From: a virus
Taxonomy: Duplodnaviria; Heunggongvirae; Uroviricota; Caudoviricetes
Length of the DNA stretch: 64,000 nucleotides
Virus record (IMG/VR): IMGVR_UViG_3300025015_000009
Coordinates: 1-64,000 of that record
Strand: one strand, 5' to 3'
Position numbers and translations under genes: made by a program. The notes beneath the pieces were generated by a model. The model was not told the DNA's origin. It worked only from the letters and a program-made list of their open reading frames with translations, and did no database searches. Numbering within the stretch: position 1 is the stretch's first letter; every line of letters begins with the position of its first letter. Positions 48,132 to 53,199 of the stretch are shown here, piece by piece.

Positions 48132-48524
48132 CTAAACTAGAATACTACCTTTAGGAACCGATTGAATACCCGATGTCGTTTCGATGTAATGCTGCTGTAG
48201 CCGGTCAACTATCTCGCACGGAATCATAACATGACTCTTTTGAATAGTTACAGGTTTATTGGGATTCATTGATATCACAGTTTGCATTAACCCTAAACCA
48301 GTTGCGCTGGGGACCACTGTCATTGGTTTCGATACGATATATGCAGTTGGTGTTTCTTCAACTAGCTTCGCTAATACTTCTTCTGAAGTAACAAGTTTCA
48401 AACAGATTACTTCTCCTACACTAATTCCTTTTGTTATAAGCATGTCGATCCCTTTAAATAAGTTCGCACGAGTTACCTGTGCATGATAATGTTTGTGATC
48501 CTTCGGTTTTGTCTTCGTGCTCAT
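48132..48524 (-). CDS. Hypothetical protein
   Basis: 130 aa. Confidence 0.3.
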   Translation of the reverse strand: MSTKTKPKDHKHYHAQVTRANLFKGIDMLITKGISVGEVICLKLVTSEEVLAKLVEETPTAYIVSKPMTVVPSATGLGLMQTVISMNPNKPVTIQKSHVMIPCEIVDRLQQHYIETTSGIQSVPKGSILV

Positions 48525-49467
48525 TGACTACAAACTGATCCCAGTTAATCTTCGGAGTAAGTTTTAACTGTTCTTCATATTCTGCCTTTGAAATCGGTTG
48601 ATACGGTGCTTGAGCATAGGTATGTTCGCTATACGGCAGGAACGATATTCCACCGATCTCATCAAAGTGTTCGTACACCCATGCACCGACTTTCATCCAT
48701 TCGTGCTCACGTACATATACGGTTATAGACACGGTATGCTCTGCCCAATTACGGTAAAACATCAAGTAATGCTCAAGTTGATCAATTGCTGTCATCTCAG
48801 ATGCAATACGGGCATGTGACGGTGACTTAGTCGGAAAACTAAACACCCAGGTTTTATCTGGTTTAGTAACTTCGTCTTCACACTTTATCCCTTGCTCTTT
48901 AAGAAACATTCCGATCGGATCAAGTTTGTCGCTGCGAACAGTTCTAACATAATAATGAGAGTAACGAGGATGAATTCCCGATGAACTATCTACTAATTGT
49001 GATACCGTGCCCGACGGCTTCGTTGTTGTTACGGCTACAGATTGGTTAATGCCTAACTTCTCTGCCCATACCTTGTTTGTTTCGATTGCACATTCTTTCA
49101 TTTTCGTTAACCAAGTTACTGCTTCATCGTTAACGTATCCTAGAACCTGATGGTCCATAATGCCGGTTAGTGACACTCCCAATAGACGTTCCTCTTCTGC
49201 GTTCTTCTTCCAAATGTTTCTTAGATACCTAAACGTAGTTAAACTAGACTGAAACGTACCTACGATAGTAGCAAGTTCTACTTTCTTCAATAATGACTCT
49301 AAAGTGTCATGTTCGCGAATAATTACTTCAGATAAGTTGCAAAATCCGGCTGATCTTAAGAATATTTCACAATTATGCACTAACACATCATTTGCAAAAA
49401 AGTTGCTTGTTTCTGGGACAGTAAAATCATATACATCTTCGTGCCCATCTTCTTCTATTATTAACAT
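48454..49467 (-). CDS. nrdJ: Class II (NrdJ-like) ribonucleotide reductase C-terminal fragment, preceded by an intein C-segment
   Basis: The N-terminal 32 aa [32 protein letters not shown] carry intein blocks F and G. The extein starts CEIF, completing the N-P-C-C-E active-site motif with the previous fragment. The C-terminal CTGNSCELI is the CxxxxC redox tail. Confidence 0.7.
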   Translation of the reverse strand: [337 protein letters not shown]

Positions 49468-50525
49468 TAAAATTTCTCCGTCATAGTTTGGTTAATTAAC
49501 TCAATTATTGATTTTGGTTTTGCATCGAAAGTAAATATCATTCCCGCATAATTATTTTTCTTAGCATAATCAAATGCTCCGTTTATTTTTACACTTAAAT
49601 ATTGTTTCTTGTTCTTCTCTAATAAAAATCCTTTTGTTTCTAGTATATACGTTTTCCCATTGTAAGTAAATATGAAATCTGGTTTATATGTTGTGTTTTC
49701 TAATACGATGCGAAACGGTTCGTAGTCCCAAGAAATTTTATTTGCTTCAAAAAAATCTATATAATTAGATTCATACGACGATCTGGTTAGAACATAATCA
49801 AGACCTCTCTTATGAAATATAAGATCTGTTTTGTCTATACGTTTAAATATTTTTGATCCACAAACATCAGAACAATACAACGCATGATGCCATGCTTTCC
49901 ACTTGTATCGTAACTGCATTAATTCTTCAGTGGGCAATAACACGATTTCATCATACGTAATTTTACTAAAAGTGTCTTCTAACTTGTGTTTTTTGATAAA
50001 ATTAATTATGCTTTTAGCAATAACCCGAGGGTTGAACTGTTTCTTAGACTCATATTGACTATTTAAGTTAATAACATCATTGTCATTCAAGGTTGCTACT
50101 TCGTCATATCCAACTGTTTTTAACTTTTTTCGTAAAAACGAAATAGTATTAACCTCTTTATTGTGCAATTTTCCCTTTTTCATTAACGTTGCGTTAAATG
50201 CTGCGTTTTGCCCAGACGCTGCCAATGCTGACATAAATTTAGAATGTTCTGGGCGTTTTTTACCATACAAAAAGTTACATTCTTTATTTCCGCAGTATCC
50301 GTCGAATTTTACACCCAACACAGCTTGTGAAGATCTGAGAACTCGTTTTGGTTTGCCGCAGCCACACAGCATTTGTTCTATTGTCCACTTTTTATTAACC
50401 AAATAATGGTCTACTACGTTCACATCGATACCCGATAATGCAATATATTCACTTTTATTCATGTGACAACCCTTGTGTTTTATACTATTATTTATCTTTT
50501 TAAAATAACTCACAAGGGTTATCAC
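49467..50525 (-). CDS. Free-standing homing endonuclease (Zn-finger plus PD-(D/E)XK)
   Basis: CGCGKP...C...C zinc ribbon. YKPDFIF...YILETKG is a D...ExK nuclease core. It lies between two RNR fragments. Confidence 0.5.
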   Translation of the reverse strand: MITLVSYFKKINNSIKHKGCHMNKSEYIALSGIDVNVVDHYLVNKKWTIEQMLCGCGKPKRVLRSSQAVLGVKFDGYCGNKECNFLYGKKRPEHSKFMSALAASGQNAAFNATLMKKGKLHNKEVNTISFLRKKLKTVGYDEVATLNDNDVINLNSQYESKKQFNPRVIAKSIINFIKKHKLEDTFSKITYDEIVLLPTEELMQLRYKWKAWHHALYCSDVCGSKIFKRIDKTDLIFHKRGLDYVLTRSSYESNYIDFFEANKISWDYEPFRIVLENTTYKPDFIFTYNGKTYILETKGFLLEKNKKQYLSVKINGAFDYAKKNNYAGMIFTFDAKPKSIIELINQTMTEKF

Positions 50526-50530
50526 CTTCT

Positions 50531-51619: not shown

Positions 51620-52493
51620 TATTTTTCCTTTTTATATTGCCTCTCGTCCATCCAACCGGATCTTCTCCTGGGGTAAATCTCTTTACTATTATACCATTAT
51701 TAAAATTTACTTTACCTTTGTTGGCTAAACTAATTTTATCCTTTACGTCTTGTCTCTTAGATGGATTGTTGTTCCCGCTTGTTTGCGGCCGAGCTACACC
51801 AATTTGTGCTTTACTAATTTTATCCTTTACATCTTGTCTCTTAGACGGGTTATTGTCTCCCCAATGAGAGGTTTTACCCAAATTTCCTAATACCCATCCT
51901 AGTGGTTCTGTCCCAGGACGAAACCTCTTAACTATTGTTCCGTTGTTATAATATTTTGCACCTTTACCTGAGTCTGGAATTTGTCCAGGTAATCTACCTC
52001 TAATCCATCCTAGTGGTTCTGTGCCCGGTGTGTATCTGTATTCTGCCGTTTGATTGTTAAAATACTTCTTACCTCTTATACTAGAACTCGTGTATTTCTT
52101 TAATTTAGTCTCTACTGTATCTTTTTTACCTGTACGTGCGTTACTTAGATTCTGTTTATGTGAGTCAGTAAAAGGTAATTGCTTATACTCTCCCAAGACT
52201 CCCCATTTAAATGCATGAGGGCATGTATTTTTTTGATTATAGTAATTAGTATCAAATACTGCATTTAGTTCGTTTATAATATCAAATTCTTTCTGATATA
52301 ATTCTTTTGCAGAATTGAACTCGAAGTGCAGTATTTGTCTCTTAAATGAATCGATCCCGTATTTGTTAATTGCAGCCACAAAGTATGTCCCCGAACCGAT
52401 ATACCCATCATCTACTCGACCAACATGAGAACCTACATACATTTTACCATTGATTAAATTTACCCACTTATATACAAATCCAATATATTCCAC
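51606..52493 (-). CDS. GIY-YIG homing endonuclease with NUMOD repeats
   Basis: YIGFVYKWVNLINGKMYVGSH is GIY...YIG. KRQDVKDKIS occurs twice. It lies between RNR fragments. Confidence 0.7.
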   Translation of the reverse strand: MEYIGFVYKWVNLINGKMYVGSHVGRVDDGYIGSGTYFVAAINKYGIDSFKRQILHFEFNSAKELYQKEFDIINELNAVFDTNYYNQKNTCPHAFKWGVLGEYKQLPFTDSHKQNLSNARTGKKDTVETKLKKYTSSSIRGKKYFNNQTAEYRYTPGTEPLGWIRGRLPGQIPDSGKGAKYYNNGTIVKRFRPGTEPLGWVLGNLGKTSHWGDNNPSKRQDVKDKISKAQIGVARPQTSGNNNPSKRQDVKDKISLANKGKVNFNNGIIVKRFTPGEDPVGWTRGNIKRKNNEDN

Positions 52494-52533
52494 ATTGCCT
52501 CCACATACTTTATTTATGCGGCACTAGGGTACA

Positions 52534-53199
52534 CTAACCTATTTCGTTATAATTTTTTATCTCGTCGACCTCGGTTAAATCTTTAGCCTCTACCCATCCA
52601 CGATTGTTAGTGAAAAACTTGTGGTCAGCAGTGCAACGAACAAATGTCCCATCTTCGAACTCTAATTCGATTTTGTCTCTGTGGCTTGACGGGGTTTCCG
52701 CTATAACAGACGGGCATGTATATTCGAATTGGTTAAGCTCAGTATTAAAACTTAACACTTCGTCAGTATAAACTAACTCAGATATTTTCTTATCACCTAA
52801 TTTAGTTTTAACCATTGTGTTAGGTTCAAAACACATTAGCAAATACATAGTCTCATCGAATGCGCGCGGATCATCAACTGCAATGTACGCACAATTGTAC
52901 CCGGCAGCCGCATCGCGCTCAAGGGCTTTACCGGCAGTCATTAATGCTCGCATCGACGGCATAACTTCTAGCTTGTTAATTGCATCGTATACTTCTTCTT
53001 TTGGAAAAAGACCTGGATACTTCTCGTCAAAGAACGTAACATACCGACTTATTGTTTCTTCCCAGGTTTCTCGTCGCTGCAAATCTGGAATGTACCTAGC
53101 GTACCTACTCATAGCAATGTATCGTTGGTAGTCTGACATGTTACTGTAATTGGATTTCATTTTTCTCTTTTCTTTAATTATTTGGTGCGGCCAGAACAC
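52534..53199 (-). CDS. nrdJ: NrdJ-like RNR N-terminal fragment followed by an intein N-segment
   Basis: SRYARYIPDLQRRETWEETISRY...MPSMRAL... is typical of the class II RNR N-terminus. The extein ends ...MYLLM. Then CFEPNTMVKT...CTADHKFFT (intein blocks A and B) and a stop. Confidence 0.7.
   Translation of the reverse strand: MFWPHQIIKEKRKMKSNYSNMSDYQRYIAMSRYARYIPDLQRRETWEETISRYVTFFDEKYPGLFPKEEVYDAINKLEVMPSMRALMTAGKALERDAAAGYNCAYIAVDDPRAFDETMYLLMCFEPNTMVKTKLGDKKISELVYTDEVLSFNTELNQFEYTCPSVIAETPSSHRDKIELEFEDGTFVRCTADHKFFTNNRGWVEAKDLTEVDEIKNYNEIG

Follow-up and report, generated by a model that had tools for sequence, protein, structure and literature searches.

Introduction

Fractured genes, in which a coding sequence is broken by a split intein together with a free-standing homing endonuclease gene (HEG), were described by Dassa, London, Stoddard, Schueler-Furman and Pietrokovski (2009; PMC2677866). 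At such loci the 3' end of the HEG overlaps the open reading frame (ORF) of the C-terminal intein half (IntC) by 6-69 bp, hairpins, often with TATAAATA-like elements, precede the HEGs (section 14 of PMC2677866), and the HEG families named were GIY-YIG and Vsr-like. The NrdJ-1 split intein is ultrafast, splicing in seconds, and has Ser at its +1 position (PMC13123727). In phage Aeh1, the HNH endonuclease gene mobE interrupts nrdA, whose pieces function without covalent joining (PMC3045599), while in engineered tandem trans-splicing at least three fragments have been joined in order by orthogonal split inteins, NrdJ-1 included (Pinto et al., 2020, PMC7090010). Here we analyze nrdJ, a ribonucleotide reductase (RNR) gene, in a 64,000-nucleotide stretch of Caudoviricetes DNA (positions 1 to 64,000 of IMG/VR record IMGVR_UViG_3300025015_000009; hereafter the window). 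As judged from its sequence, the gene is a doubly fractured class II (RTPR-like, B12-dependent) RNR of a ~318-kb groundwater phage.

Both breaks have the anatomy of fractured genes: colinear exteins, an N-terminal intein half (IntN) followed by a stop, an IntC that begins with Met and ends in HN followed by Cys, and a free-standing HEG in its own frame. With the Lake Gatun NrdJ-1 and NrdJ-2 loci of Dassa et al. (2009) the window shares an overlap between HEG and IntC and phage origin and, at one of its two HEG starts (HEG2), a hairpin with a TATAAATA-like element. Its second intein is homologous to NrdJ-1 and lies at the same point, one residue after the thiyl-radical Cys. Unlike those loci, the present one has two cassettes in one gene and three polypeptides, and its first site (LLM/CGSG, the slash marking the insertion point) is absent from the sites reported in PMC2677866; in addition, intein 2 has Cys rather than Ser at +1, and the site-2 HEG encodes a predicted PD-(D/E)XK nuclease resembling T7 endonuclease I, Hjc and TnsA. 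In Aeh1, too, a free-standing HEG fractures the phage gene for an RNR large subunit, and a hairpin sequestering the ribosome-binding site (RBS) controls HEG translation there, as it may here, but Aeh1 nrdA contains no intein and its chains are not joined. Whereas the system of Pinto et al. (2020) is a man-made mix of sources, two split-intein pairs, and a third in an RNA ligase gene, occur naturally in this one phage.

Split inteins are core tools of protein ligation, and multi-fragment ligation needs pairs that do not cross-react; the phage would be a natural source of co-resident, co-evolved orthogonal pairs, two in nrdJ and a third in the RNA ligase gene. Our literature search yielded the paper of Dassa et al. 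(2009), surveys of RNRs and of inteins, a split intein in a jumbo-phage PolB and the heavy gene fragmentation of Jug phages; none of this describes a native gene with two split inteins, which is absence of evidence only, most subscription journals lying outside its scope. An earlier reading of this DNA made without database searches (the sequence-only reading) had called two such sites in one essential gene striking. This overstated their rarity: the fractured-gene layout is known (PMC2677866), and double nrdJ fracture recurs in public metagenomes. New here, relative to a layout known since 2009, are the double fracture, the new site and a different HEG family.

Organization of the nrdJ locus

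Five consecutive minus-strand ORFs (48454-53160) consist of nrdJ fragments alternating with two endonuclease genes, and by their coordinates each lies in a frame other than that of the adjoining ORFs. The ORF table and the sequence thus agree with the sequence-only reading, which had placed a class II RNR in three ORFs of this strand. From 5' to 3', the features are as follows.

53249..53277, minus strand: candidate sigma-70-like promoter TTGAAA-17-TATAAT, 5' of ORF1 (11/12 match, the best in the region)
52834..53160, minus strand: nrdJ extein 1 (ext1), 109 aa from ATG 53160; the Cys of YNCAY aligns with RTPR Cys119
52534..52833, minus strand: Int1N, N-half of split intein 1, with stop; 99 aa, block A CFEPNTMV, block B CTADH
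52494..52533, minus strand: spacer before HEG1, with CATAAATA, a GGAGG Shine-Dalgarno sequence and a weak 7-bp hairpin
51606..52493, minus strand: HEG1 (ORF2), predicted free-standing GIY-YIG homing endonuclease gene; 295 aa, NUMOD3-like repeats
51512..51619, minus strand: Int1C, 36-aa C-half of split intein 1, with AGGAAA before its own ATG; ends ALVHN, +1 Cys
50849..51511, minus strand: nrdJ extein 2 (ext2), 221 aa, CGSGVGFS...GANPC; its last residue is the thiyl-radical Cys, aligned with RTPR Cys408
50531..50848, minus strand: Int2N, N-half of split intein 2, with stop; 105 aa, CVSGDMIV, TEDH, predicted NrdJ-1 family allele
50463..50525, minus strand: hairpin with a 15-bp stem at the HEG2 ATG; sequesters an AAGGG Shine-Dalgarno sequence, GATAAATA in the loop
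49467..50462, minus strand: HEG2 (ORF4), predicted free-standing endonuclease gene; 331 aa from ATG 50462, Zn ribbon and PD-(D/E)XK
49372..49467, minus strand: Int2C, strongly acidic 32-aa C-half of split intein 2; ends VLVHN, +1 Cys
48454..49371, minus strand: nrdJ extein 3 (ext3) with stop; 305 aa, CEIF...CTGNSCELI, C-terminal CTGNSC redox pair

The C-terminal part of ORF1 (Int1N) reads CFEPNTMV...CTADHKFF...NEIG and then stops; ORF3 opens with Int1C, which begins MKII and ends NHNFVLSNGALVHN, and closes with Int2N (CVSGDMIV...TEDHLVYT...LLIG), again followed by a stop. All five ORFs were present at the coordinates first listed for them, but two of the mechanical starts, GTG 53199 for ORF1 and GTG 50525 for ORF4, are probably not real: ATG 53160 (or 53139, the choice of public gene callers) is the more likely start of ORF1, and ATG 50462 most likely that of ORF4. 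Each nrdJ fragment is preceded by a Shine-Dalgarno-like sequence, namely AAGAG for ATG 53160, AGGAAA for ATG 51619 and GGAG for ATG 49467, the last placed 8 nt 5' of the ORF5 ATG with which Int2C begins. The 3' end of HEG1 overlaps the start of ORF3 by 14 nt; the overlap of the HEG2 stop with the ORF5 start is 1 nt (TAATG), below the published 6-69 bp range. The overall number of matches in the promoter scan was not above that in shuffled sequences, and the candidate promoter is a consensus match only and weak evidence. Public gene calls give these ORFs no product names. In such calls a fractured gene like this one appears as five unrelated small ORFs.

Continuity of the exteins and identity of the reductase

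Splicing the exteins in silico (ext1+ext2+ext3) gives a protein of 635 aa. It matches L. leichmannii RTPR (1L1L) with E=2.1e-47, and the alignment is gap-free over both junctions, with LLMCGSGVGFSV opposite ELMKGGGVGFSV; another 1L1L segment aligned with the spliced product is GTNPCGEISLANGEPCNLFEV. The motifs NCAY, NPCCE, FCNL and CTGNSC of the spliced protein align with NCWF, NPCGE, PCNL and CEGGAC of 1L1L, that is, with RTPR Cys119, Asn406/Cys408/Glu410, Cys419 and the C-terminal pair Cys731/736. Cys119, Cys408, Glu410, Cys419 and Cys731/736 are established as catalytic and redox residues of RTPR. We considered whether the +1 Cys of intein 1 could be the Cys119 equivalent and ruled this out; the equivalent residue is in ext1 (YNCAY), and the +1 Cys lies opposite the Lys of ELMKGGG.

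The three fragments cover positions 19-123, 172-378 and 378-722 of the NCBIfam RTPR model TIGR02505. On this model the spliced protein reaches 298.9 bits (E=7e-89), one stretch of its match crossing junction 2, and stays under the equivalog cut-off of 340.05 bits; because of this, we label it an RTPR-like phage class II RNR and assign no substrate.

To place the junctions against natural genes, the best 80 nrdJ loci among IMG/VR relatives were compared. In 79 of them the gene is uninterrupted, and the counterparts of ext1, ext2 and ext3 follow one another in one frame without an intervening base; the best of these (L001) is 76, 86 and 79% identical over the three exteins. In the exception (L008), intein-like insertions in frame with the exteins occupy two points, site 2 and a third site within ext3. 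A MAFFT alignment with 51 uninterrupted proteins (identity up to 81%) likewise contained zero gaps at either junction. In this alignment LLMCG(S/C/T)GVGFSV and N-P-C-C-E are native sequences, and C, S, A or G occupies the position of the intein-2 +1 residue. Hence the continuity check proposed by the sequence-only reading came out in its favor, and the N-P-C-C-E that it expected to be regenerated at the catalytic Cys is what uninterrupted relatives encode.

Two split inteins

Intein halves had been proposed at both breaks on motifs, and profile and structure-based searches bear this out. Int1C (31.8 bits) and Int2C (32.4 bits) both pass the 15.6-bit cut-off of TIGR01443, the intein C-terminal model, and the N-halves score just below the gathering score of Pfam Intein_splicing, as expected for a half domain (the ORF1 match covers residues 137-214). 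When the halves of intein 2 were fused, residues 18-136, spanning both halves, matched the solved NrdJ-1 intein (PDB 8ubs; E=2.7e-18). Fused intein 1 also matched NrdJ-1 best (8ubs, E=3.7e-10), followed by Npu and Ssp DnaE, DnaX, DnaB and gp41-1, again over both halves. Cys1, the block-B TxxH, the terminal HN and the +1 Cys are present in both inteins, and the split geometry, 99/36 aa for intein 1 and 105/32 aa for intein 2 with each C-half starting at its own ATG, is the canonical one of natural trans-splicing inteins, in keeping with what had been read from the sequence.

Judged by homology and by its thiyl-Cys insertion site, which is that of NrdJ-1, intein 2 is an allele of this split intein, with Cys in place of Ser at +1. 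It shares with NrdJ-1 (PDB 8ubs, 9omb; PMC13123727) the class-1 mini-intein fold, a 105-aa N-half and the host site. The two differ in that intein 2 is only ~38-45% identical to NrdJ-1, has a C-half of 32 aa that is acidic rather than of 40 aa and basic, and carries Ser for the block-F His besides its +1 Cys. The two nrdJ inteins and the third intein of the window, in the RNA ligase gene, are ~30-36% identical to each other.

Insertion sites and recurrence in other phages

Site 1 is LLM/CGSGVGFS, and site 2 is NPC/CEI, right after the thiyl-radical Cys; the latter is the NrdJ insertion point of Dassa et al. (PMC2677866). We surveyed the fracture states among the 120 best database hits to ORF3. 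Uninterrupted genes account for 59 hits and NrdJ-1-type N-fragments (ext1+ext2+Int2N) for 29, about 17 are fractured at site 1 only (Int1C+ext2+ext3), several combine Int1C with an IntN at a third site (KPSG/T), and five are double-split middle fragments: that of the window and P0002, P0021, P0024 and P0030, which are 53-61% identical to it. Thus at least four further metagenomic phage lineages have a doubly fractured nrdJ.

The complete five-gene layout was found at 3648-7910 of a 122.7-kb contig (L085; Logan DRR438477). A second contig (L087) has the same layout, its first gene being cut by the contig end, and a short contig cut at its 5' end (L086) shows four of the five genes, the ext1+Int1N gene missing. 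The splicing residues are retained across these diverged relatives. The second intein of L085 is ~88% identical to published NrdJ-1 (8ubs; E=3.8e-80), and therefore the lineage of this tool intein includes doubly fractured genes; the native context of NrdJ-1 may be a three-piece enzyme. The locus thereby ties a biotechnological workhorse to a doubly fractured natural context.

The first site lies at LM/C in the window, L087 and L088 (NCBI FLOH01000319.1), and at LMxG/T in L085 and L086; the second is NPC/C or NPC/S in the window, L085 and L087, and one residue earlier, NP/C, in L086. Homologous split inteins are thus displaced by one or two residues between phages, for which independent invasions and intein sliding are candidate explanations. 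A third site in the same nrdJ clade, at the motif KPSG/T(V)SQLVD, is occupied in L088 and L008. L088 is fractured at sites 1 and 3; in its region 5001-7840 an HNH_3 gene lies between the halves of the site-3 split intein, combined with the site-1 split.

RNR genes of cultured phages carry inteins as well. In Yersinia phage TG1, a related split intein and an HEG fracture nrdA into gp162, which has an Int2N-like half at its end, gp163 ('homing endonuclease') and gp164. The nrdA of Campylobacter phage IBB_35 contains three inteins, of which one is split at the thiyl Cys (TNLC/C...VHN/CEI) and two are contiguous mini-inteins. Both genes differ from the nrdJ of the window in being class Ia nrdA with one split intein each, and the TG1 HEG is unrelated to ORF4. 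A tblastn search had suggested an intein at site 1 in Campylobacter phage nrdA; reading of the ORFs placed it at the thiyl-Cys site, and this candidate was dropped. The nrdA region of IBB_35 carries no annotation beyond misc_features ('similar to RNR' and three 'intein'), yet reads as two intact ORFs. By this reading, IBB_35 nrdA may be functional and not decayed as suggested in PMC3653736.

Proposed trans-splicing and alternative explanations

We consider it highly probable that the three polypeptides are joined by two independent, specific trans-splicing reactions into a reductase of native sequence, and that the cassettes are kept by endonuclease-driven homing. Two composite selfish elements, each a split mini-intein with a free-standing HEG lodged at the intein split point, would have invaded nrdJ at two conserved sites. 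The three nrdJ pieces would be co-transcribed and each translated from its own RBS, giving three polypeptides. Int1N would then pair with Int1C and Int2N with Int2C, each pair folding into a HINT domain, and class-1 trans-splicing would proceed by an N-S acyl shift at Cys1, trans-thioesterification to the +1 Cys, Asn cyclization and an S-N shift, yielding one 635-aa reductase. During co-infection, HEG1 and HEG2 would cut intein-less nrdJ alleles, leading to copying of the whole cassette, and HEG2 translation would probably be held down by the hairpin that buries its RBS. The enzyme would work only if two split-intein pairs made together pair correctly, and the locus would illustrate how much fragmentation by selfish elements an essential gene can survive.

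Several points weigh against this account. We infer splicing, pairing specificity and endonuclease activity, and with them homing and translational control, from the sequence. The spliced protein stays under the TIGR02505 equivalog cut-off, and its substrate may be an NTP or an NDP. Int2C has Ser at the block-F His position (ETSNFF, compared with STHNFF in NrdJ-1; many inteins have His there), which is probably tolerated because the closest relatives, L086 and L089, share it. The HEG1 leader hairpin is weak and not significant (z=-0.14). Finally, the C-halves in this phage have opposite net charges (Int1C +2, basic; Int2C -8, acidic), but Int2N (-4) and Int2C are both acidic, and simple charge complementarity does not explain the pairing. 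The idea that swapped charges keep the two inteins apart did not hold in general, the N-terminal ends of the C-halves in L085 and L087 being neutral to basic. The opposite charges could help to keep the pairs apart in this phage, as a local observation that is not conserved in other double-split loci.

The alternative that survives best, although we regard it as unlikely, is that the fragments are not ligated and form a non-covalent active reductase, the intein halves acting only as dimerization handles. Aeh1 NrdA works as two chains (PMC2677866, PMC3045599), and the lack of the block-F His in Int2C would fit such a scheme. However, Cys1, TxxH, the terminal HN and the +1 Cys are kept in both inteins and across diverged relatives, and the homologous NrdJ-1 splices in seconds (PMC13123727). 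Moreover, site 2 separates the thiyl Cys from the catalytic Glu (C-x-E), and an insert of 137 aa there would disrupt the active site.

It is still less likely that nrdJ is a decaying pseudogene wrecked by selfish elements in a phage that uses the host RNR. Campylobacter phage RNR genes riddled with inteins and ORFs have been read as degenerating (PMC3653736). In the window, by contrast, the exteins are intact, with the catalytic residues complete, up to 81% identity to uninterrupted homologues and zero frameshifts or indels, and no fragment lacks a start codon or a Shine-Dalgarno sequence of its own. The same layout is kept at 53-61% identity in other phages, implying purifying selection.

The window comes from a metagenome assembly, and contiguous inteins with nested endonucleases could in principle have been broken into separate ORFs by frameshift errors. 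Public data contain the ORF3 middle fragment (P0001) at 100% identity. It lies on at least 18 contigs, of which the longest measures ~318 kb, assembled from groundwater metagenomes in PRJNA268031 and elsewhere. A 5.3-kb stretch (window 48100-53400) is 100% identical in three contigs assembled independently from different samples and runs, and aligns to a fourth independent contig with one mismatch and zero gaps. A frameshift or assembly error is not viable because the locus is identical across independent assemblies, and it is also excluded because diverged relatives have the same five-gene layout, with stops and starts at the same places. The GIY-YIG and PD-(D/E)XK genes, furthermore, have their own starts, RBSs and stops in other frames. 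We therefore give such an artefact a negligible probability, and the frameshift errors that the sequence-only reading wished to see checked are ruled out. When the region was compared by megablast with 50,697 phage records, nothing matched, so the phage has no close relative among them; a search of genome contigs with ORF3 found no relative either.

Joining at the RNA level by group I introns carrying endonuclease genes can be dismissed with much the same assurance: such introns are frequent in phage RNR genes (PMC3653736), but an Rfam scan of the region that included them gave no match even at E<=1, and the flanks encode clear intein halves, which would be pointless if removed as RNA.

Homing endonuclease genes

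The two genes between the intein halves had been described as GIY-YIG at site 1 and Zn-finger/PD-(D/E)XK at site 2, and both descriptions stood up to family searches, alignment and structure prediction. ORF2 matches PHROG 314 ('homing endonuclease'; phrog_314) with E=2.3e-29. Its N-terminal catalytic module carries IGFVY...MYVGS (GIY...YVG), its match to TIGR01453 (E=1.8e-5) is below the model cut-off, and NNPSKRQDVKDKIS, which is NUMOD3-like, occurs twice. GIY-YIG homologues occupy the HEG1 position in L085 and L087. On these features HEG1 is a predicted GIY-YIG homing endonuclease.

ORF4 has few relatives, only 109 in a full HMMER scan of 1.84 billion representatives. Their alignment shows a Zn ribbon (CxC...CxxxxC) at the N-terminus and the motif GKKRPEHS, which we read as NUMOD3-like. 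It also shows invariant S228, E231, E239 and E248 and near-invariant P261-D262-F263 and E275-x-K277, a canonical PD-(D/E)XK site. The AlphaFold model has a mean pLDDT of 93. Foldseek against the PDB gave only local matches, in which the last ~90 residues align with the nucleases Bax1, Hjc, RecU, TnsA and R2 (probabilities 0.98-1.0, E-values no better than 2.7e-3), and in the ORF4 family Pfam matches were to Phage_endo_I (23/47) and TnsA_N (21/47). Vsr-type motifs (D, FW-H, D) are not the ORF4 pattern, which is E...PD...ExK. Because of the PD-(D/E)XK site and the matches to Phage_endo_I, TnsA_N, Hjc and Bax1, ORF4 falls outside the two HEG families named in 2009, GIY-YIG and Vsr-like.

A search of viral contigs with ORF4 as a single query found no match. 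The same search seeded with a 10-sequence alignment retrieved full-length relatives at five IMG/VR loci (L089-L093), and all five lie between an IntN and an IntC at the RNR thiyl-Cys motif, the IntN beginning CV(S/T)GD or CIAGD and the IntC ending VHN. Their host genes are one class I RNR (SSNL/C...VHN/CAEII), two RTPR-like nrdJ and two RNRs of other type (STNP/C, RNA/C). L086 has a 332-aa ORF4 homologue at the same place. Because ORF4-type genes keep turning up between intein halves at this RNR motif, nuclease and intein appear to move together as a single cassette.

We lean, with reservations, towards a joint proposition. Its first part is that three-piece proteins made through two orthogonal split inteins are recurrent in phage nrdJ, at sites 1+2 and 1+3 and including the NrdJ-1 lineage. 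Its second is that the site-2 endonuclease represents an undescribed HEG family (Zn ribbon, NUMOD3-like helix, Endo I/Hjc-like PD-(D/E)XK) that travels with the CV(S/T)GD split intein and targets the universal RNR thiyl-Cys motif in classes I and II. The locus is in this respect a lead to a candidate new PD-(D/E)XK homing-endonuclease family, apparently specialized on the RNR active-site motif.

Short genes for a nuclease domain resembling ORF4 residues 248-313 (30-40% identity) were also seen in marine IMG/VR contigs (L025-L080), at a fixed distance of ~1.3 kb upstream of an uninterrupted nrdJ. They are probably T7 endonuclease I-type resolvases of podovirus-like phages, not HEGs.

Base composition and HEG leaders

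The exteins have the GC content of the window (0.43 and 0.429, respectively), whereas the intein halves and HEGs are at 0.30-0.37 (pooled 0.334), a foreign base composition that is also seen in the fractured RNA ligase gene. The hairpin before HEG2 has a dG of -25.1 kcal/mol (z=-7.1; 0/200 shuffles as stable) and ends, on its 3' side, one base before the ATG. With GATAAATA in its loop and the AAGGG RBS buried in it, it resembles those that precede HEGs in published fractured genes (PMC2677866). In the HEG1 leader, CATAAATA has one mismatch to the T4-type late promoter TATAAATA.

Other genes of the window

A third fractured gene, at 26301-28579 (minus strand), matches Pfam RNA_ligase with E=5.8e-12 and phrog_548 with E=1.1e-45 and encodes an Rnl2-type RNA ligase. 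A split intein with +1 Thr interrupts it inside the motif GTVKLHG/TNLG (KxHG/TN); the parts are as follows.

28130-28411, minus strand: RNA ligase IntN, split intein N-half
27283-28125, minus strand: RNA ligase HEG, 280 aa, with Vsr-related DUF559/MTES_1575 matches; overlaps the start of the IntC ORF
27216-27317, minus strand: RNA ligase IntC, split intein C-half

Another free-standing GIY-YIG gene (33674-34504, minus strand; phrog_314 E=7.8e-26) overlaps with its end the start of a 549-aa gene at 32028-33677. Directly upstream of nrdJ, 53299-56847 (minus strand) encodes a protein of 1182 aa with about ten tandem repeats of ~40 aa (GGTGNGFAKFAGPTTTEKTYTLPDASTTILTTNALVTSAQ); no PHROG matched it, and a fibre-like structural role is probable. 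Tail-fibre-like proteins are encoded in the window, and PAAR-like and SleB-like genes adjoin nrdJ. The first 2,000 nucleotides (1-2000) have a GC content of 0.52-0.57, compared with ~0.43 in the rest of the window, and ORF 35-916 there matches phrog_2295 (unknown function; E=2.6e-59). Finally, rIIB-like (phrog_609 E=6.2e-65) and rIIA-like (phrog_612 E=9.5e-84) genes at 35292-38341 (minus strand) fit a large T4-like or jumbo myovirus.

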